Shown: positions 29,005 through 54,361, counted from the stretch's first letter. The stretch is DNA of 64,000 bases from an uncultured Candidatus Actinomarina sp. (GCA_902578135.1 CACHBU010000005.1:827-64826), one strand, 5' to 3'. The notes: generated by a model from the letters alone, not told the origin. Made by a program: numbers and translations.

Positions 29005-30078
29005 ATGTCAAATCAACTTGGAACAATTGCAATATTAGGGTCTGGTGAAACAAGTCCTAATTTAGTTGCAGTACATAGAAAACTATTACAGGAAATTCCT
29101 AAACCTGTAAAAGCATACATGCTAGATTCACCATTTGGTTTTCAGGAAAATGCAGAACAACTTGTTGAAAAAATTCAAGATTTTTATGATTTAAGTTTAA
29201 ATATAAAAATTAAATTAGCATCTTACAGAAACATAGAAGAATTAAATACAAAATCATTCTTTAAAACGATATCTTTATTAGGAGAAGCAGATTTTATATT
29301 TGCAGGCCCTGGTAGTCCCAGCTATGCAAGCAAACTGTGGGTGAATAATGAAATTGAAGAAACATTGTTTAATCATATTAAAAAAGGTGCAAACGCTCTA
29401 TTTGCAAGTGCTGCAGCAACAACTCTGGGAGAAAACACTTTACCTGTTTATGAAATATATAAGGTTGGGATAGAACCATATTGGGAAGAAGGTCTTGATT
29501 TGCTTGGCTTGTACGGTTTGTCTTGTACTGTAGTGCCTCACTTTAATAATAGAGAGGGAGGAAATCATGATACAAGTTTTAGTTATGTAGGTAAAAATAG
29601 GATGAATAAATTAATGGAAATTGATTATTCTAATCTACTTGGTATTGATGAACACACTGCGTTAATAATTTCTGGTAAAGAAAATACGTTTGAAGTTTAT
29701 GGACTTGGACAAGTTACCGTCATTAATGAGGACAAAACTCTAGAATTCAAATCTGGAGAAACTTACGATTTAACCACTTTGCAAAATCATTTAAGTAAAA
29801 GCCACAAAGATAAATCATCTGAAATAAATCAGGAGGCTAAACAAAATAAATCAGATGAAACTTTAAGAAAAATTGCGAATCTCGAAATACAAATTGAAGA
29901 AAACGAATCTAACAACAAAATATTTAAAGAATTGGTAACCCAATTAATTGATTTACGGTTAAAGCTAAGAAGTGAAAAAAATTATGAAATGTCTGACATG
30001 ATAAGAGATATTCTTGAATCTTCAAATATTCAAATTGAAGATTCAACAGATAAGATAGAGTGGAAAATTAAGGATTAG
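29005..30078 (+). CDS. Peptidase S51/cyanophycinase-like protein fused to a CysRS-type C-terminal domain
   Basis: LGSGE, FAGPGSP.Y, ASAAA, VVPHF, GIDEHTA; C-terminal R..LR..KNY..SD.IRD.L....IEDS....W. Confidence 0.75.
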   Translation: MSNQLGTIAILGSGETSPNLVAVHRKLLQEIPKPVKAYMLDSPFGFQENAEQLVEKIQDFYDLSLNIKIKLASYRNIEELNTKSFFKTISLLGEADFIFAGPGSPSYASKLWVNNEIEETLFNHIKKGANALFASAAATTLGENTLPVYEIYKVGIEPYWEEGLDLLGLYGLSCTVVPHFNNREGGNHDTSFSYVGKNRMNKLMEIDYSNLLGIDEHTALIISGKENTFEVYGLGQVTVINEDKTLEFKSGETYDLTTLQNHLSKSHKDKSSEINQEAKQNKSDETLRKIANLEIQIEENESNNKIFKELVTQLIDLRLKLRSEKNYEMSDMIRDILESSNIQIEDSTDKIEWKIKD

Positions 30079-30889
30079 CTTTTGGGTAATGTCCTAAAAT
30101 AATAAATTCTTTTGAAACTTTTTTTATTCCATCTATAAGCTCCATTTGTGTTTTTACATTTTGAAGTTCATAATCGATATAAAACTTGTATTCCCAAGGC
30201 CTTCCTAATATTGGCCTTGATTCAAGTTTTGTTAAGTTTATATTAAGATCGCTAAATATATTGAGTGCTTTAAGTAATGAACCTGGTTTATCATCTGAAA
30301 TAAGTACAGATGAATATTTATTATTTTCTTTATTGGATTCCAATTTTTCATTCCCAATTAAGAGAAATCTAGTGAAATTTTCTTGATGGTTTGAAATATT
30401 TTCTTTAAGAATCTTAAATCGTTCATCGTTTTTAAAGTGCTCCCCTGCTATTGCTGCTGTATTAATGTCTTTTGTTTCCAATATTTCAAAAACGCTTCCT
30501 GCAGTGTCAAAAACTGGTGTAATTCTTAACTTTGAATCTTGTAGAAATTTATTACATTGTTGTAATGCCTGTGGATGTGAAATCACATGAGTAATTTCTT
30601 CAAACTTAGAATTTGAAAGACCTATTAAAGTATGATCAATTTTTTTAATAAATTCTCCAAATATTTCTAACCCACTATTGATTAATTCTTCGTAGGCCTC
30701 ATTAACAGTACCTGCAATTGAATTTTCTACTGGTAAGAGGCCTAAGCAACTTTCACTACTAACTTTATTTAGTAACTCTGTAAAACTTTCACAGGCAATA
30801 AAAGAATAATTTGAAAATTCTTTTTTTAGAAGCTCTTCCGAATAAGAACCCTCTGAGCCTTGATACGCAATCTTAAAATTATTTGTCAT
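30068..30889 (-). CDS. pheA: Prephenate dehydratase
   Basis: YQG..GSYSE, PVENS..G, SHPQAL.QC, NFTRF, NLTKLESRP. Confidence 0.95.
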   Translation of the reverse strand: MTNNFKIAYQGSEGSYSEELLKKEFSNYSFIACESFTELLNKVSSESCLGLLPVENSIAGTVNEAYEELINSGLEIFGEFIKKIDHTLIGLSNSKFEEITHVISHPQALQQCNKFLQDSKLRITPVFDTAGSVFEILETKDINTAAIAGEHFKNDERFKILKENISNHQENFTRFLLIGNEKLESNKENNKYSSVLISDDKPGSLLKALNIFSDLNINLTKLESRPILGRPWEYKFYIDYELQNVKTQMELIDGIKKVSKEFIILGHYPKANP

Positions 30890-31316
30890 TTATATAATCC
30901 AATGCTTGAAAATATCCTTCTATACCCTCACCTATAATCGAAATTTCACAAAATTCTTTGATTAGATTAAATTTTCTGTAATTTTCTCGTTCTTCAATGT
31001 TTGATATATGAACTTCAATAATTTTATTTTGAGCACTTAGTGTATTTAAAGCGTCCCTCAAAGCGATACTTGTATGGGTAAAAGCACCTGGATTGATCAC
31101 TACCCAAGAATCAAATGAATGATGAATCGATTGAATAAAGTTAACTAATTCCCCCTCAATATTTGATTGAAAATGTTCAATCTCCATATCTAATGCTTTT
31201 GCTTTGTTACCAAGTAACTTTAAAAGAGTTGTGTAATCAGTTTCACCATATTTCTCCAACTCTCTAATTCCTAGGAAATTTAAATTTGGACCATTAATAA
31301 TATATATTTTTTTAAT
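30879..31316 (-). CDS. aroQ: Type II 3-dehydroquinate dehydratase (ATT start)
   Basis: INGPNLNFLG.RE lies upstream of the tracked start; QSN.EG, NPGAFTHTS, EVHISN. Confidence 0.93.
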   Translation of the reverse strand: MKKIYIINGPNLNFLGIRELEKYGETDYTTLLKLLGNKAKALDMEIEHFQSNIEGELVNFIQSIHHSFDSWVVINPGAFTHTSIALRDALNTLSAQNKIIEVHISNIEERENYRKFNLIKEFCEISIIGEGIEGYFQALDYINDK

Positions 31317-32304
31317 GCTGAATCACCTCAATTACTTCATTAAATGTTAGATTAATCACTTTTGGATTACCTATTTCATAGAGCAGAACTATATCGACTC
31401 CTTTTGCATTACTCTTTTTGTCATGCTTTAACATCTCAATTAATTTTTCACTATTAGATAGAAAGTTGTATTCGTAATCATATTCAATTTTATTTAAGTA
31501 GTTTAAATAAGAATCAATAATTTCCTTAGGTAGACCCAATTGCTCTTTTGAAATTAAGAGTTCATAATAAATACCTATGGCTACTGCTTGACCATGAGTA
31601 ATTTCATAATTAGAGTCTTTCTCAACTAGATGTCCCAACGTATGTCCAAAATTTAATAATTTCCTTTTATCACCCTCCAAAAAATCTTCACTGACAATTT
31701 TGAGCTTTACATCAATACCTTCTCTTATTATTTCAAATTCAACATTGAAACTCGTTTTTGTAATCATAGAATTGAATATTTTTTCATTAGCTATCATTCC
31801 ATGTTTGATTAGTTCTATAAGACCATCTTTATAATGAGCTTCAGGCAAAGTATCCAGTAATTGATAACAAACAATGACACTTTCCGGGAGAGTAAAAGTA
31901 CCAATTTGATTTTTACCATATGTATTATTAAATCCATTCTTTCCACCATGAGATGCATCAACCATTGATAAAAGCGTTGAAGGAACAAACGTAAACGATA
32001 CTCCTCTTTTAAATGTACTTGATGCAAACGCACACACATCTGATAGAACACCACCACCAATAATTACTATTTCACTTGATCGATTTAAATTGTGTTGAAA
32101 AAGTAAATCCCAAATTTTTTCTACTGACGTCAAGTTTTTTGTTTCTTCATTAATGTCAAAATAAGAAACCTGAGCATTAACTTGCTCATCAATTTTGAGG
32201 TTATTCAAATTTGAATCAATGATAAAAAGAGACTCATTTGAGAATCGTGAATTTAAATATTCTATAAGTTCTAAATTAGTTTTCAAATATATATTATTTG
32301 TCAT
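31312..32304 (-). CDS. aroB: 3-dehydroquinate synthase
   Basis: [29 protein letters not shown]. Confidence 0.95.
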
Positions 32305-32792
32305 TTTTTTCCAGCCAATATATCGAGTATTGAATTAATGACATCATTTAAGTTAGAATTTTTAATTTTTATATGCAGATTTTCATATCTTGCTTTTCTA
32401 TTATTAAATAAATCTTCAACATAATCTTGTCCTAATTTTGCTAACGGTCTGTCAGAATTTTGGATTCTTGACCACAATATCTGAAATTCTTCTTCTATAT
32501 ATATACCTGTTTTGTTATCTAATATATATTTGTAAATATTGTTGTTTGTTAATGCACCTGCGCCTAATGCAACAAGGTTGGATTCAGGTTTAATAAGAAA
32601 AAACTCTTTCTCTTCCAGCTTACGAAAGTAATCTTCGCCATTTATTTCAAAAATTTCATTGATAGGACCGTGTTTTTCTGCGATTGATGCATCTAGATCT
32701 ATACATGAGAGTTGAGTACTCTCCTTTATTTTTTTGAGAATAGTAGATTTACCTACACCCATGAAGCCAGACAAATAGTAACATTTATTCAT
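32301..32792 (-). CDS. aroK: Shikimate kinase
   Basis: [18 protein letters not shown]. Confidence 0.93.
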
Positions 32793-33966
32793 TTTCATAT
32801 TTCATGTTCCAATTTTTATTTGAAAGTGAAATATCATCAATAGTAAATTCTTGAAGTTTTACAACTCGTGAATGGATTTCTTCCTTTGAGTCTCCACCAG
32901 TCTTTTCTAACAGTGAATTTAATAAATCAATTGAGAATACACTTTCAAATATTGGTACTGCTCTTGGAACTGCACAAGTATCAGATCTTTCATAATTTGT
33001 TTCTGTTTCTACTTGTTCTACAAGGTTTACACTTTTTATTGGTGTCAAAGTTGTGCTAATCGGTTTTAAATAGCTTGTAACAACAATGGGTTCGCCTGTT
33101 GTCATTCCACCTTCGAAACCGCCTAAATTATTTGTAATTCTCTCAACTTTTTTTTCATTTAAGACAATTTGATCCTGTACTTCTGTTCCAAATTTTTTGG
33201 AAGAATCAAATCCATCTCCTATTTCAACCGCCTTAACACTTTGTACTGACATCATTGACGAAGAAATAATTGCATCAAGTTTACGGTCAAAATGTACATA
33301 GCTACCACAAGCTGGTGGAAAATTTGTAGCTACGCAAGTTATTGAACCTCCTAAAGTATCTTTTTTCTTTCTTGCAGACTTTATTTCATCAATCATTAAT
33401 TTACTTGTTTCTTCATCTGGACATGAAACTTCTGAATTGTAAATGGAATCTTTCAATTCTGTATCGGTTATAAATTTTGATACATCAAGTTCTTGCTTTC
33501 CTATGGATGAAACAAAACCAATTATCGAAATATTTAACTGCTCAAGGATTTGGTGGGCTATAGCGCCAACAGCACATCTTATTGCTGTTTCACGAGCACT
33601 TGCTCTTTCCAGCGCGATCCGTATATCTTCGTGGTTATATTTTAATGTGCCAACTAGGTCAGCATGTCCTGGACGTGGTACTACAAAAGGTTCTACTTCT
33701 TTATCTTTCCAGTTATTCCAATCTCTATTGATAATTTTTAAAGCAATTGGGCCACCAGTGGTTTTGTTGTTGACTACTCCAGAAGAAATTAATACCTCAT
33801 CTTTTTCAATGTTCATCCTTCCTCCAGAACCAAGGCTCTTTTGTCTTCTGGATAAAAAACTATCAATGTATTCTTTTGTGATTATGAAATTAGATGGAAT
33901 ACCTTCTAAAATTGCAGTGAGTTCTGGTCCATGACTTTCGCCAGCAGTAAGATATCTAATTTTCAT
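32785..33966 (-). CDS. aroC: Chorismate synthase
   Basis: [28 protein letters not shown]. Confidence 0.97.
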
Positions 33967-34750
33967 TTTTTAGCCTTTCTGTAATGTTATGGTACACATC
34001 TTCTAATTTGATTTCTGAGTCTGCCCAAATGTTAAAAGAAGCAACTGCTTGAGTAATTAGCATTTTTATGCCATCGATTTTAATGACATCCTCTGAGAAT
34101 TTAGATGTAAAGATTTCTTTAACGTTATAACCCAGATTGAAAAATACTTCTAAATTGTTAAATTGATCGAATGGAATATTTAGGCTCTCCTCTTCAAAAG
34201 GTGGCATGCCTATAGGTGTTGTGTTAATTAATATATCTATTTTTGGAGCTATATCATTTATTTCATTGTATGAAATGGAATCCAAATAAGGTTCCCTAGA
34301 AGCTATTTGTACTGTATTGTGTTCCTTAAATAAATACTCAATTGTTTTTGAACTTCCACCACTACCTAAAATTAAGATATTCTTATTATTAATTTTTGTA
34401 TAAATTGACTCTAAGGTTTTATTTATTCCCTCTATGTCAGTGTTGAATGCATAGATATTATTATCGACTAACTTAATTGTATTACAAATGCCTAATTCTT
34501 TTACGTGGTGATCAGGCAAATAACCCTCTGTATTTTCAATTAATTCAATTATTTTGTTTTTATGTGGAACTGTAATATTGTAACCATCAAATTTTGAATT
34601 AATATCTTGAATTTTTTGTCTATCCAGATTTTCTATGGGAACTTTTTGATACTCAATATTTATTCCTAAAAACTCACCTAGAAGTTTATGAATTAATGGT
34701 GAATATGTTTTAGTAAGTGGCCAACCTACAATTCCAAGCTTAAGATTCAT
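33956..34750 (-). CDS. aroE: Shikimate dehydrogenase
   Basis: G.P....SP.IH, NITVPHK, NTD, GSGG, INTTP.GM. Confidence 0.92.
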   Translation of the reverse strand: MNLKLGIVGWPLTKTYSPLIHKLLGEFLGINIEYQKVPIENLDRQKIQDINSKFDGYNITVPHKNKIIELIENTEGYLPDHHVKELGICNTIKLVDNNIYAFNTDIEGINKTLESIYTKINNKNILILGSGGSSKTIEYLFKEHNTVQIASREPYLDSISYNEINDIAPKIDILINTTPIGMPPFEEESLNIPFDQFNNLEVFFNLGYNVKEIFTSKFSEDVIKIDGIKMLITQAVASFNIWADSEIKLEDVYHNITERLKNEN

Positions 34751-36011
34751 AATTCGCTCCAATTTTTTCTAAGTCGTAAAAAAAATCTGGATATGAATCA
34801 CTTATACAATCAATATTGTCTGCTTTTATCTGTGAATCTATACATATATTAGCTACGACTGCAGTCATTGCTATTCTGTGGTCTTCAAGAGTCTCAACTA
34901 CTCCACTCTGTAAATTTTGCTTACCATTTATTTCAAAACCATCTTCGAAAGTAGTAATTTCACCATCTAGTTCATTTATAAAATTTTCCATAGCTGCCAA
35001 ACGATCAGACTCCTTAACTCTTAATTCTTGAGCACCTATTACCTTTGTAACACCTTCTGCTTGAGACGCTAACAGTGTAAATATTGGAATTTCATCTACC
35101 ATATCAACCACGTCAGAGCCATCGATAGTAACACCTTGAAGTTTAGATTTTTTAACTACAATATCTCCAACTGGTTCGTTTTGAAAATTTTCTATATTTT
35201 CCAATAAAATATCAGCATTCATTCTTTTTAGAACTTTTAAAAACCCAATTCTTCTCTCATTTAATAAAACATTTTTGATTACTACTTTTTTGCTCTTCAA
35301 CAATCCTATAGCAATCAAAAATGCTGCAGATGAAGGATCTCCTGGAACTAAATAATCTATACTTGTTATTTCATTTATTGGGGCAACAGTAGAAGTATTT
35401 CCAAGTCTTACAATGTTGACACCCATTAGACTTAGCATTCTTTCTGTGTGATCTCTGGTTGGTACTATTTCAGAGATAGTAGTTGGAGCTTTATGATATA
35501 AACTAGCAAGTAGAAAACTACTTTTTACCTGTGCGCTTGGCTTAGTTGAATGAATGTTTTCAAAGGAGTAATCTGAAGGTTTAATTTTTATGGGAAGGCT
35601 ACCTCCATTACCTGAAATTCTGGCACCTTCATTGACTAAAGGATCAATTACCCTACTCATTGGTCTTTTGTTTAGTTGAGCACTACCTATTAAATCACTT
35701 TCAAATTTTTGTTTTGAAAGAAGACCTATAAGAAGTCTTGCAGTTGTGCCAGAATTAAGAGCATTAAGCGGTTCCTTTGATTCATTCAATCCATTTAAAC
35801 CAACACCATGAATTTCTAATTGATTGTTTGAAATTTCATTAATCTCAACACCTAGATTTTTAAATATATTTATTGTTGCTTTTGTATCACCAGAGATTAA
35901 TACATTAGACAATATAGATTTACCAAAAGCTAGTGAAGATAAAATTATAGCTCTATGCGAAATAGATTTGTCACCTACTATATTAACTTCGCCAAAAATT
36001 CTGCTTCTCAT
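34740..36011 (-). CDS. aroA: EPSP synthase (class II)
   Basis: GDKSISHR, NSGTT.R, SAQVKS, RDHTER, RVKESDR, DHR. Confidence 0.96.
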   Translation of the reverse strand: MRSRIFGEVNIVGDKSISHRAIILSSLAFGKSILSNVLISGDTKATINIFKNLGVEINEISNNQLEIHGVGLNGLNESKEPLNALNSGTTARLLIGLLSKQKFESDLIGSAQLNKRPMSRVIDPLVNEGARISGNGGSLPIKIKPSDYSFENIHSTKPSAQVKSSFLLASLYHKAPTTISEIVPTRDHTERMLSLMGVNIVRLGNTSTVAPINEITSIDYLVPGDPSSAAFLIAIGLLKSKKVVIKNVLLNERRIGFLKVLKRMNADILLENIENFQNEPVGDIVVKKSKLQGVTIDGSDVVDMVDEIPIFTLLASQAEGVTKVIGAQELRVKESDRLAAMENFINELDGEITTFEDGFEINGKQNLQSGVVETLEDHRIAMTAVVANICIDSQIKADNIDCISDSYPDFFYDLEKIGANYES

Positions 36012-36847
36012 TTTAATTTTCTTTCTCCAAATTTATCAGCCAATGCTCGACGCCAGTCAACTGTTTTAGATAGATAATTAAGCATTAATTCTTGATCTTC
36101 TATTAAGATAATCTTTTCTAATTCTTCGATTAACTCCTTAACTAAAGTTTTAACATTCAAGTCGTTTGTTAAATACATGTCAGATATCATATTCGGAGAA
36201 GTTCTTGATAGCCTTGTTGCTCCGTCAAAACCTCCCGAAGCTAAATCTAGCAATTCATCCATCTCGTGTTTTTGCATAGCTGTAGAAACAAGAGCAGAGC
36301 TTAATATATGTGGCAAGTGACTTGTTAAGGAAATTAATTCATCGTGTTTTTTAGGATCTATCCAAATTGGTTTCGAATTTATTAGTTCTACAAAATTAGT
36401 CACTATATTCTTTGTTTCATTTGTTGAACTTTCTGTTTCACATAATAAAAAAGGAGCTTGATTGTACATTTCTGGAGTTGGGTCCCAAGTTTGGTTATCA
36501 GCAATTCCACATAGTGGATGACCACCAAAGGAAGGAATTTTACTCTCGTCCATATATCTACAAATAATTTTTTTCGTTCCACCAAGATCAATTAAAACTT
36601 TCGAATTAATTTCAATCTTAGAATCTCTCAAACTTGAGATAATTTCATTTATAGGCATTGCAAGTACTGTTAAATCGTACTCTGTATCAAGATTATGATT
36701 CAAATTTATTGCATCATACTTTTTAGCTCTGTCTAGATTGCTTTTCGAAGTATCATCCCCACTAACCTGTAATCCTTTTTCAACAAGCTTAATACCAAGG
36801 TTGGTACCCATTAAACCCATGCCAATTATATGAACTTTATTAATCAT
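36008..36847 (-). CDS. tyrA: Prephenate dehydrogenase
   Basis: G.GLMG, D.G.TK, GGHP..G, HD......SHLPH. Confidence 0.93.
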   Translation of the reverse strand: MINKVHIIGMGLMGTNLGIKLVEKGLQVSGDDTSKSNLDRAKKYDAINLNHNLDTEYDLTVLAMPINEIISSLRDSKIEINSKVLIDLGGTKKIICRYMDESKIPSFGGHPLCGIADNQTWDPTPEMYNQAPFLLCETESSTNETKNIVTNFVELINSKPIWIDPKKHDELISLTSHLPHILSSALVSTAMQKHEMDELLDLASGGFDGATRLSRTSPNMISDMYLTNDLNVKTLVKELIEELEKIILIEDQELMLNYLSKTVDWRRALADKFGERKLK

Positions 36848-37861
36848 TTAGACTGACCTTCCTACCGCCTTTGCGACAATTGATGTTTTATCTATTAAGG
36901 TTTTTAATTCATTTGGTAATAATGCTTGTGGACCATCACATAGAGCTTCATCAGGCCTTGGATGAATCTCTATCAATAAACCATCTGCTCCAGCAGCTAT
37001 AGCTGCTAAAGCTACTGGTTCAACAAGCTTATTATCGCCGGTTGCATGACTTGGATCTGCAATAATAGGAAGATGGCTGTTTTGCTTTAGATAAGGTATT
37101 GCATTTATATCAAATGTATTTCTAGTAGCTGTCTCATAGGTTCTTATACCTCGCTCGCAAAGCATGACATTTTCGTTTCCCCTAGAAAGAATATATTCAC
37201 TAGCCAACAGAAGCTCATCCAGAGTTGCAGATAGTCCTCTTTTTAAAAGAACTGGTAAGTGTGATTCACCTACTGCTTCAAGTAATTTAAAATTTTGCAT
37301 ATTTCTTGCTCCCACTTGAAGAACGTCTACATATTTTTCCATCATAGATAAATGTTGAGCATCCATTATTTCGCTAAACAAAGGTAATGAAGTTATTTCG
37401 GAGGCTTCCTTTAGCATCTTAAGTCCGTCTTCTCCCAGTCCTTGAAAACTGTAAGGTGACGTTCTGGGCTTAAAGGCACCACCCCTTAAACCATTTGAAC
37501 CTGCCTCTTTTGCAGCTAATGCAGTTTCTATTGTTTGTTCTTGTGTCTCAGCACTATCTGGACCTGCAATTATTGCTAATTGTTGACCACCAATTGATAA
37601 ATTTTTGATAACAATAACTGAATCATCTTTTTGATAATTTCTACTTGCAAGTTTATATGGTTTTCCAACAGGTATTACACGACTAACATTTGGCAGTAAC
37701 TTCATAACTGCTCTATGATCATCGTTTACCTTTCCACTTACAGCTACGACACTTCTCTCAACACCGTAGATAACTAAAGGCTCATGACCTTGCTGTATTG
37801 CTTTTTCTTTTACCTTTTCTATATCTTCTTCTGTTGAAGATTGGTTCATTACTACTATCAA
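36848..37861 (-). CDS. aroF: DAHP synthase type I-beta with N-terminal regulatory domain
   Basis: GGAFKPRTSPYSFQG, GARNMQN, LCERG, DPSH; AGGAGG before TTG. Confidence 0.95.
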   Translation of the reverse strand: MIVVMNQSSTEEDIEKVKEKAIQQGHEPLVIYGVERSVVAVSGKVNDDHRAVMKLLPNVSRVIPVGKPYKLASRNYQKDDSVIVIKNLSIGGQQLAIIAGPDSAETQEQTIETALAAKEAGSNGLRGGAFKPRTSPYSFQGLGEDGLKMLKEASEITSLPLFSEIMDAQHLSMMEKYVDVLQVGARNMQNFKLLEAVGESHLPVLLKRGLSATLDELLLASEYILSRGNENVMLCERGIRTYETATRNTFDINAIPYLKQNSHLPIIADPSHATGDNKLVEPVALAAIAAGADGLLIEIHPRPDEALCDGPQALLPNELKTLIDKTSIVAKAVGRSV

Positions 37862-37873
37862 TTTTCCTCCTAT

Positions 37874-37901
37874 AAAAAAAAATCGGGCCTTTGCCCGATT
37901 T
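37874..37901 (-). terminator. Attenuator terminator upstream of aroF
   Basis: AAAUCGGGC-aaag-GCCCGAUUU followed by a U-run. Confidence 0.9.
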
Positions 37902-37924
37902 CACACAACATACTTTAGGGCAAC

Positions 37925-37969
37925 CTATATGTGCTCTCTAAAGTAAAAGTATGTGTTGTTTAACTTCAT
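37925..37969 (-). CDS. Leader peptide MKLNNTYFYFREHI (Tyr/Phe attenuation)
   Basis: TAC TTT TAC TTT codons, alternative hairpins and terminator downstream, TGn-TATGAT 7 nt upstream. Confidence 0.85.
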   Translation of the reverse strand: MKLNNTYFYFREHI

Positions 37970-38011
37970 TAGAAATATCATAGCAGAGTATTTTGTTTTA
38001 CAAATAATTTT

Positions 38012-38356
38012 TTATCTATCTGGTCGTAGTTTCTTTGCATCCTGTAAATAAACATGTTGTATATCTTTAATATCATTGTTTACAGTAACTAATATCCTTA
38101 TACAGCCATCTAAATCGTTCTGAATTTCTGGTGCTTTTGCATCCAACGCTGGAATTGACATCATTCCTAACTCTCGAAAAGCTTTTGCAGGAAATGCAGC
38201 AGTTAAATCTTTCGTTACTGTAAACAAAGCAAAGACAATATCTTCTTCTTTTAAGCTATTTACATTCATTATTGAATTTATTAAAGATTTTGAGGCATTA
38301 ACAATGCCTTCATCCGTATTTTCTACAACTGCGATTGCTCCACGTATGCTTTTCAT
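38012..38356 (-). CDS. aroH: Chorismate mutase, AroH (Bacillus) class
   Basis: IRGA, FTVT.DL.A.FPA...R, CIR, HVYL..A..LRPD. Confidence 0.93.
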   Translation of the reverse strand: MKSIRGAIAVVENTDEGIVNASKSLINSIMNVNSLKEEDIVFALFTVTKDLTAAFPAKAFRELGMMSIPALDAKAPEIQNDLDGCIRILVTVNNDIKDIQHVYLQDAKKLRPDR

Positions 38357-38374
38357 AATATTTGTTTACTATAT

Positions 38375-38404
38375 AAAAAGAGTGGAACAATGTCCACTCT
38401 TTTT
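38375..38404. terminator. groEL intrinsic terminator
   Basis: AAAAAGAGTGGA-acaatg-TCCACTCTTTTT. Confidence 0.85.
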
Positions 38405-38426
38405 TAAAGTCTAGAATGTAACTTGA

Positions 38427-40067
<1,641 letters not shown>

Positions 40068-53801: not shown

Positions 53802-54361
53802 TATTTAAAGTGTCTAGAAATTGAGTTGTAAATATCCTCTACTTCCCCAATAGCATCTATAACATTTACCAAGTTTTTTTCATTATAAAAATCAACTAAA
53901 GGCTGCGTATCTTTTTTGTAAACTTCAAACCTGACCTTAATTGAATCTTCAGTATCATCGGATCTGCCAGTCATTTCCCCTCTTAGTAAAATTCTTTTTA
54001 TTAATTCATCTTCGTTTACTTCAAATACAAAAACTTTCGCAACAGGAAATTCTTTATCTAAACTCTCTAAGCTTTTAGCTTGGGGTAAGGTTCTGGGGAA
54101 GCCATCAAGGATTGCACCATTCTTACAGTCTTCATTATTCAGTCTCTCTAGAAGCATTTCTATAACTAATTTGTCAGGGACTAAATTTCCTTCATCAAGA
54201 AGACTTTTAGCTATTTTACCTAGTTCAGTTCCACTGCTTACATGTTCTCTCAACATATCACCCGTTGAGATATGGGCTAGGTCAAATTCAGACGCAATTT
54301 TCAGAGCTTGAGTTCCTTTTCCTGCACCTGGCGGTCCAAGAAATATATTTAATTCACTCAA
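53801..54361 (-). CDS. adk: Adenylate kinase (short LID)
   Basis: GPPGAGKGTQ, HISTGD, LDGFPR, R.DD. Confidence 0.97.
   Translation of the reverse strand: MSELNIFLGPPGAGKGTQALKIASEFDLAHISTGDMLREHVSSGTELGKIAKSLLDEGNLVPDKLVIEMLLERLNNEDCKNGAILDGFPRTLPQAKSLESLDKEFPVAKVFVFEVNEDELIKRILLRGEMTGRSDDTEDSIKVRFEVYKKDTQPLVDFYNEKNLVNVIDAIGEVEDIYNSISRHFK

Follow-up and report, generated by a model that had tools for sequence, protein, structure and literature searches.

The classical leader-peptide attenuators are those of pheL-pheA and trpL-trp in enterobacteria (PMC11802643). A comparable actinobacterial system is aroR of Corynebacterium glutamicum, a Phe-Tyr-Phe leader peptide encoded ahead of the 3-deoxy-D-arabino-heptulosonate 7-phosphate (DAHP) synthase gene aroF (PMC11802643; PMC7356990). 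As PMC11802643 relates from the work of Neshat et al. 2014, ribosome stalling on the Phe/Tyr codons of aroR raises transcription, and the same source states that transcription of C. glutamicum aroF is altered by Phe limitation only and not by Tyr availability. Leaderless leader peptides have been described in Streptomyces lividans (trpL, leuL, ilvL and others; PMC8079986) and for ilvB in C. diphtheriae (PMC5784534), and a 2005 survey of the Actinobacteria known at that time, by Seliverstov et al., reported no conserved RNA element ahead of their Phe/Tyr genes (PMC1262725). Here we analyze a 64,000-nucleotide (nt) stretch of DNA from an uncultured Candidatus Actinomarina sp. (CACHBU010000005.1:827-64826; this whole stretch is called the window), in which a short leader precedes the nine-gene aromatic operon aroF-tyrA-aroA-aroE-aroC-aroK-aroB-aroQ-pheA. 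Its sequence and its variation among relatives indicate that this leader is most probably a ribosome-mediated leader-peptide transcription attenuator of the aroF-...-pheA operon, a reading to which we give a probability of about 0.85.

Like pheL and trpL, the leader combines a short open reading frame (ORF) bearing tandem end-product codons with predicted alternative 1:2, 2:3 and 3:4 helices and a terminator before the first gene. The enterobacterial leaders sense a single amino acid and have a ribosome-binding site in a 5′ untranslated region, whereas here there is no Shine-Dalgarno (SD) sequence, the ORF apparently starts at the 5′ end of the RNA, and Tyr and Phe codons are mixed; moreover, the antiterminator takes in no more than the top of the terminator arm, and no Rfam leader family is matched. 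With aroR the element shares an actinobacterial host and an F-Y-F core directly before a DAHP synthase gene; the attenuators of C. glutamicum are reportedly leaderless transcripts. It differs from aroR in its reach, nine genes that comprise the complete common pathway and the branches to Tyr and to Phe, and in its host, an Acidimicrobiia-type lineage with 32.6% G+C and a genome of ~1 Mb. Given this distance between hosts and the short length of the element, an origin independent of aroR is at least as likely as common descent. The S. lividans and C. diphtheriae leaders likewise lack a 5′ untranslated region, carry hairpins with U-stretches and precede actinobacterial amino-acid genes, but none of those listed in the two papers is a Phe/Tyr leader or lies ahead of an aro operon. 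The locus had been singled out in a sequence-only reading of the window, which considered this combination unfamiliar from actinobacteria. That claim does not stand beside aroR and the leaderless leaders already in print (PMC11802643, PMC7356990, PMC8079986, PMC5784534): the element is new for Actinomarinales, and the mechanism is not new. A literature search on Actinomarina leader peptides found nothing relevant.

Organization of the leader region

All features of the putative attenuator lie on the minus strand, and the promoter, the 14-codon ORF without an SD sequence, the helices, the terminator and the AGGAGG motif were each found where the sequence-only reading had put them:

38003..37998, minus strand: -35-like hexamer TTGTAA (TTGCAA or TTGGCA in relatives), 15-16 nt ahead of the -10 hexamer (15-nt spacer here)
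37985..37977, minus strand: extended -10 element TGcTATGAT (TGc 37985..37983, TATGAT 37982..37977), followed by 7 nt (ATTTCTA) and then the leader ATG
37969..37925, minus strand: leader ORF MKLNNTYFYFREHI*, 14 codons and a stop, without SD sequence
37951..37940, minus strand: control codons TAC TTT TAC TTT (Tyr-Phe-Tyr-Phe)
37956..37933, minus strand: region 1, ACACATACTTTTACTTTAGAGAGC, the 5′ strand of the predicted 1:2 (anti-antiterminator) helix, overlapping codons 5-13
37921..37903, minus strand: region 2, GCCCTAAAGTATGTTGTGT, the 3′ strand of the 1:2 helix, with a GCCC that doubles as core of the antiterminator 5′ arm
37923..37918, minus strand: predicted antiterminator 5′ arm TTGCCC, beginning 2 nt past the leader stop codon and followed by CTAAAGTATGTTGTGT
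37896..37891, minus strand: predicted antiterminator 3′ arm GGGCAA, made up of the top of the terminator 5′ arm and two bases of its loop
37902..37874, minus strand: intrinsic terminator GAAATCGGGC-AAAG-GCCCGATTTT, 10 pairs (5 G-C), running into a T9 tract
37871..37866, minus strand: SD sequence AGGAGG of aroF

The leader ORF reads ATG AAG TTA AAC AAC ACA TAC TTT TAC TTT AGA GAG CAC ATA TAG, and none of GGAG, GAGG or AGGA occurs within 20 nt upstream of its ATG. The last control Phe codon lies 16 nt ahead of TTGCCC and the stop codon 2 nt ahead, and the distance from the leader stop to the aroF start is 63 nt, a space that holds the 10-bp terminator and the T9 tract. A further ATG, within the -10 box TATGAT itself (37981..37979, minus strand), is in frame with the leader here and would extend it to MIFLMKLNN...; most relatives lack this in-frame ATG, their -10 boxes being TAACAT, TATCAT and the like.

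Conservation of the leader across the order

The order was sampled through 65 species genomes, which fall into two genera of a single family. A match to the 150-nt leader was found in 55 of these genomes; the match in one of them (G067) proved to be a Trp leader rather than the aro leader and was removed, leaving 54. All 54 carry an intact leader ORF, the terminator and the aroF start, and together they provide 38 distinct RNAs and 17 distinct peptides. The 11 genomes without the leader comprise six in which chorismate synthase was not detected, one in which aroF was not detected and four in which the operon is cut by a contig end, so that no aroF lacking the leader was found among the genomes of the order with an assembled aroF 5′ end. 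As a separate observation, aroF was not found in three genomes of the same genus (G008, G045 and G067), and in G008 and G045 chorismate synthase was not found either, though G008 consists of only 7 contigs and is 87% complete; some members of the Actinomarinales may be without the pathway, or the region may be unassembled.

Metagenomic loci gave the same picture. Of 80 returned, 76 were examined, four being excluded as their match did not start at residue 1. Sixty of the 76 have the leader ORF, and a further five are cut by contig ends, four of which retain its 3′ part; thus every close locus with enough upstream DNA carries the leader (60/60), and it was not seen at 11 distant loci where aroF is only 51-53% identical. 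In a second set, genome_contigs (78 of 80 loci examined), the leader is present at all 47 Actinomarinales-type loci and was not seen at the 31 loci of other phyla, one of which has an F-W-W ORF. Nor was it seen, as judged by eye, ahead of 10 aroF-like loci from other families of the same class.

The leader has the signature of a coding unit next to a promoter

The coding signature was measured on the 38 distinct genome leaders. The ATG and the reading frame are invariant, and the four aromatic positions are occupied by Tyr (26) or Phe (12), Phe (38), Tyr (38) and Phe (38), written with TAC, TAT and TTT only. The first of them is confined to TAC, TAT or TTT, and the second Tyr position holds Tyr without exception in genome and metagenome leaders, twice as the synonymous TAT. 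An F-Y-F core, set in YFYF, FFYF or YFFYF, is thereby found in every leader, from genomes and metagenomes alike. Synonymous variation is present throughout (TAC/TAT, CAC/CAT, ATA/ATT, AAA/AAG, AAC/AAT, TAG/TAA). The His-Ile that precedes the stop is fixed at the residue level in 38/38 leaders and both genera, while its codons vary (CAC 35, CAT 3; ATA 37, ATT 1), and the stop itself is TAG in 14 and TAA in 23, one sequence ending one codon later. Leaders are 13, 14 or 15 sense codons long, with lineages differing by exactly one codon, and in all of them the stop lies 0-3 nt ahead of GCCC. Since Phe and Tyr codons make up 8.8% of codons in long ORFs, four in a row would rarely arise by chance. 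Tyr is mostly encoded by TAC in the leaders, yet the genome prefers TAT (TAC 9.3 versus TAT 26.2 per 1000 codons). One tRNA-Tyr(GUA) gene and one tRNA-Phe(GAA) gene were found in the genome.

A promoter-like element is tied to this ORF. In 38/38 leaders a TGn-TAnnnT motif ends shortly before the ATG, at 7 nt (26 leaders), 8 nt (11) or 6 nt (1), and SD-like motifs within 20 nt upstream occur ahead of none of the leader ORFs (0/38) and ahead of every aroF (38/38). Because the -10 box of the window ends 7 nt before the leader ATG, transcription would begin at or beside the A of that ATG and produce a leaderless transcript.

Predicted helices and the proposed switch

In the minimum-energy fold of the leader, ACACATAC/TACTTTAG.G.GC (37956..37933) pairs with GCCCTAAAGTATGTTGTGT (37921..37903), and the terminator is also formed. 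The fold has an energy of -30 kcal/mol (z = -3.99), which none of 200 shuffled sequences equalled. On a MAFFT alignment 93.3% of cells pair in the 1:2 helix and terminator, and RNAalifold returned an inner 1:2 helix, CTTTAG.G.GC with GC.C.CTAAAG, that includes the GCCC of the antiterminator arm; the 1:2 and 2:3 pairings are thus mutually exclusive. A covariance model was built and 65 matches, 57 of them distinct and the second lineage included, were aligned to it. Side matches of this model (28-34 bits, ~460 nt upstream) correspond to the groEL terminator region and were excluded at E <= 1e-12. In the model-fitted alignment of 57 distinct sequences 93.5% of cells pair, and 9 of 27 pairs have changed on both sides (33 cells); none of 500 shuffles reached any of the five measures, and every slid control was lower. 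In the terminator 99.7-99.8% of cells pair, with one compensatory pair.

Three loci of the second genus (L077, L145, L147) form the same outer helix, inner helix and terminator with different letters, TTGAACA:TGTTCAA in the outer helix and CTTTGG:CCAAAG in place of CTTTAG:CTAAAG in the inner one, which lends independent support to the predicted 1:2-plus-terminator design. The sequence-only reading had proposed that Y/F codons and helices should be conserved upstream of aroF orthologs, and this was borne out, with (Y/F)FYF in 38/38 leaders and compensatory changes in the 1:2 helix and the terminator.

In the antiterminator pairing, TTGCCC:GGGCAA, the four G-C pairs are invariant, and the two U-A pairs are retained in 35/38 and 26/38 leaders. 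When the RNA was cut off at the terminator loop and a ribosome was set on the final aromatic codon, the minimum-energy fold contained GCCC:GGGC in 38/38 leaders, at -5.8 to -10.7 kcal/mol. An equilibrium switch was considered and dropped: when the first 30-60 nt of the full leader were masked, it never folded into the antiterminator and the terminator always won. Since the terminator prevails in full-length folds under every ribosome mask tried, the switch would have to be kinetic. Kinetic switching is usual for attenuators. The AGGAGG of aroF is unpaired in the predicted folds.

The 15 matches from an Rfam cmscan of 37400..38500 (E up to 10) were all weak, and no leader-peptide or T-box family was among them. 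The same scan gave sub-threshold L20_leader matches elsewhere in the window.

Sister leaders in the same genome

The host genome (27 contigs totaling 0.99 Mb, completeness 87% from marker genes, G+C 32.6%) was scanned with a generic pattern: TAnnnT, 5-9 nt, an ATG, a short ORF and then a perfect hairpin with at least 6 T. The pattern matched at 5 of 20 strict terminators, namely the aro leader and four other mini-ORFs; neither the reversed genome nor windows shifted by 200, 400 or 600 nt gave a match. The four sister leaders are:

C1, ~256000, minus strand (L079): Trp leader MKNVTSWNWWSTT (WNWW), ahead of a TrpB-like pyridoxal phosphate enzyme
C2, ~29600, plus strand (L080): branched-chain leader MKNLAVFISVLVLLLI (V/I/L-rich), ahead of ilvB-ilvN-ilvC-leuA-leuB
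C2, ~134600, minus strand (L081): Ile leader MKKIIIII, ahead of citramalate synthase
C3, ~54100-54290, plus strand (L082/L243): Val-rich leader MQKYNIVNVVKYINM, ahead of isocitrate lyase and malate synthase

The sisters differ from the aro leader in their control codons and operons and resemble it in the spacing from promoter to ATG: all five mini-ORF leaders of the genome have 6-7 nt between the -10 box and the ATG. They are 8-16 codons long, and within 1-6 nt of the stop (G/A/T)TGCCC faces GGGCA. Except in the Ile and branched-chain leaders, which have other hairpins, the sister terminators are of the form CGGGC..GCCCG and end in a long T-run. In the Trp and Val-rich leaders the GTGCCC after the stop faces GGGCAC, just as in the aro leader TTGCCC faces GGGCAA; this repeated match of TGCCC with GGGCA lends indirect support to the predicted antiterminator. 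Moreover, as three of the four sister leaders carry codons cognate to their operons, the comparison argues strongly that the mini-ORFs are sensors read by ribosomes.

The Val-rich leader is a side observation of its own. It reads MQKLNVVQVVVYIHM in relatives and is kept at 14 of 14 loci examined, its stop and (A/G)TGCCC facing a CCGGGCAC..GCCCGG terminator with a T-run. An attenuator of the amino-acid type ahead of the glyoxylate shunt is unexpected.

A model for the proposed attenuator

The leader thus brings together an ORF with codons for the end products, an intrinsic terminator and mutually exclusive 1:2, 2:3 and 3:4 helices, and the comparative evidence from conservation, promoter, codons and helices favors pheL/trpL-type attenuation of the aro operon, as the sequence-only reading had proposed. 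In the model that we favor, which would involve translation of the leader, kinetic competition between helices and a response to Phe and/or Tyr, the extended -10 promoter would direct RNA polymerase to start on, or immediately beside, the A of the leader AUG, and the ORF would be translated from a leaderless transcript. If Phe-tRNA and Tyr-tRNA are ample, the ribosome would reach the stop codon and its footprint, of the size generally known for ribosomes, would hide TTGCCC; GGGCAA would then be free to join the terminator, and transcription would end in the T9 tract. When no ribosome is present, region 1 (codons 5-13) would pair with region 2, including its GCCC, and the terminator would again form. 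This untranslated case would presumably also end transcripts arriving from the aroH promoter, in which the leader AUG is internal and without an SD sequence. When a ribosome stalls on the Tyr/Phe codons, region 1 would be hidden and GCCC free, and (T)TGCCC could pair with the emerging GGGCA(A). The antiterminator would thereby withhold the nucleating top of the terminator while the polymerase is on the U-tract, allowing read-through into aroF.

An additional feature can be imagined at the end of the peptide. Because His-Ile-stop is invariant despite synonymous changes and the stop lies so close to GCCC, the peptide might also slow its own release at this site in the manner of TnaC, possibly via free Phe or Tyr, which we consider quite unlikely. 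If it were true, the dwell of the ribosome on the antiterminator arm would add an amino-acid-level input to that from tRNA charging.

Alternative explanations

Several observations weigh against the attenuator as drawn here. The antiterminator is short and shows no covariation among the 38 leaders; z-scores of the stalled-ribosome window are modest (-0.67 to -2.75), and its energies are weaker than that of the terminator (-14.8 kcal/mol). The covariance alignment was fitted to the very structure being tested, and the sequences are close kin (mean column identity of the leader alignment 85%), so that conservation and part of the apparent covariation may reflect shared descent. The model also leaves unaccounted for the nucleotide conservation of GCACATATA, at the 3′ end of the ORF. 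High nucleotide conservation throughout the leader, where RNA and coding constraint are not cleanly separable, together with the position of the terminator 110 nt after aroH, could also fit an ORF that is incidental, the RNA being an element that binds a protein or small molecule (riboswitch-, TRAP- or PyrR-like) or the terminator serving constitutively for aroH. This explanation would leave unexplained why 38/38 leaders keep a promoter ahead of the terminator at a distance of 6-8 nt from the ATG, why the frame, ATG, stop position and aromatic codons are kept through synonymous changes and a codon-sized indel, and why the sister leaders bear the codons of their own operons (WNWW, IIIII, V/I/L); nor did the cmscan offer any leader-peptide or T-box family at E up to 10, and we regard the explanation as very unlikely. 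The least likely reading of all is that the leader ORF mainly boosts translation of aroF, by re-initiation or by unfolding its ribosome-binding site, without controlling termination. Re-initiation at actinobacterial leader genes has been proposed in print, in PMC4833913, but here the 63 nt from the leader stop to the aroF start hold a canonical 10-bp terminator and its T9 tract, and aroF has a strong AGGAGG of its own that is unpaired in the predicted folds.

A different question is what the attenuator would sense. The sequence-only reading held that one alternating YFYF sensor integrates both amino acids, and in part this stands, both codon types being invariably present. The part that concerns the response is challenged by C. 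glutamicum, where a Phe-Tyr-Phe leader goes together with an aroF that responds to Phe only, Tyr availability being without effect on its transcription (PMC11802643). By analogy, the same attenuator could here be a sensor of Phe alone, its Tyr codons being retained through descent or for RNA pairing (A26:U59 and C27:G57 in the 1:2 helix): the leaders contain more Phe than Tyr codons (2-4 versus 1-2), and the Tyr codon TAC sits in the conserved inner helix. Set against this are the second Tyr position, which is Tyr in every genome and metagenome leader even where the codon has changed to TAT, the first aromatic position, which alternates between Tyr and Phe only, the presence of tyrA as well as pheA in the operon, and the finding of single genes for tRNA-Tyr(GUA) and tRNA-Phe(GAA), either of which could become limiting. 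A Phe-only sensor is a tentative possibility, and the attenuator may instead sense both Phe and Tyr.

The uses of chorismate bear on the same point. A chorismate-binding enzyme (TrpE/PabB/MenF, PF00425) was found in all control genomes and in none of the order's 65 genomes (12 of high quality); IGPS and TrpA were not found in the host genome, which is 87% complete. As no PF00425 enzyme was found in the order, the shikimate pathway seems to serve only Phe and Tyr among the amino acids, these being the only ones that chorismate seems to feed here, and tryptophan seems to be made, if at all, by the TrpB-like enzyme from salvaged indole.

The aro operon and its neighbors

The nine genes downstream of the leader abut or overlap one another, and NCBIfam profiles confirmed the aromatic operon that the sequence-only reading had described; several scores fall below the equivalog cut-offs and are family-level calls.

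36848..37861, minus strand: aroF, DAHP synthase, TTG start at 37861 (NF006421 457 bits, TIGR01361 370 bits)
36008..36847, minus strand: tyrA, prephenate dehydrogenase (best NF006307, 161 bits, below the equivalog cut-off; family-level)
34740..36011, minus strand: aroA, 5-enolpyruvylshikimate 3-phosphate (EPSP) synthase (TIGR01356 366 bits)
33956..34762, minus strand: aroE, shikimate dehydrogenase (TIGR00507 143 bits, cut-off 200; family-level)
32785..33966, minus strand: aroC, chorismate synthase (NF003793 390 bits)
32301..32798, minus strand: aroK, shikimate kinase (80 bits, below cut-offs; family-level)
31312..32304, minus strand: aroB, 3-dehydroquinate synthase (TIGR01357 290 bits, cut-off 305)
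30879..31316, minus strand: aroQ, type II 3-dehydroquinate dehydratase
30068..30889, minus strand: pheA, prephenate dehydratase, the last gene of the operon (NF008865 193 bits, cut-off 219)
38012..38356, minus strand: aroH-type chorismate mutase, directly upstream of the leader, with its own promoter-like site after the groEL terminator

AroF has a DAHP synthase domain of the B. subtilis/KDO8PS-like type with an N-terminal extension; AroF of C. glutamicum is a DAHP synthase of another subtype. The conserved N-terminus of AroQ (KIYIINGPNLNFLG) is without an ATG, GTG or TTG start (31311..31322, minus strand), and an in-frame ATT at 31316..31314 overlaps the aroB stop (ATTAA). This ATT is the probable start of aroQ, and the overlap suggests a non-canonical start with translational coupling.

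In the gap between groEL and aroH (38357..38426, minus strand) lies a terminator, AAAGAGTGGA-CATTGT-TCCACTCTTT with a T-run, and its 3′ side bears a promoter-like TGGACA-17-TATAGT for aroH. No SD-like motif precedes aroH, and in one relative (L137) just 6 nt separate TATAGT from the aroH ATG. Since the terminator of the attenuator lies 110 nt past aroH, it would be expected to end the aroH transcript too.

Twenty sequencing runs were found to contain the sequence, 11 of them recorded as RNA. The sequence of the window is present in four metatranscriptome libraries as assembled contigs, one of which (X6) extends from aroF across the leader and aroH into groEL; such contigs cannot give the start, end, strand or level of a transcript, RNA libraries may contain DNA, and contig ends and depths were not used for any inference.

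Implications

The locus adds a further natural example of the aroR type, available in many sequence variants, and opens no new mechanism. What is unusual is its reach, a single sensor over all nine genes of a pathway dedicated to Phe and Tyr; where the pathway serves only these two among the amino acids, a single Tyr/Phe sensor for the nine genes would be logical. Candidatus Actinomarina, one of the smallest free-living actinobacteria of the sea, is uncultured, and its regulation can therefore be read only from sequence. The aro element and at least three sister leaders in a genome of ~1 Mb suggest that amino-acid supply in this organism is mainly under the control of cheap, cis-acting leaderless attenuators.

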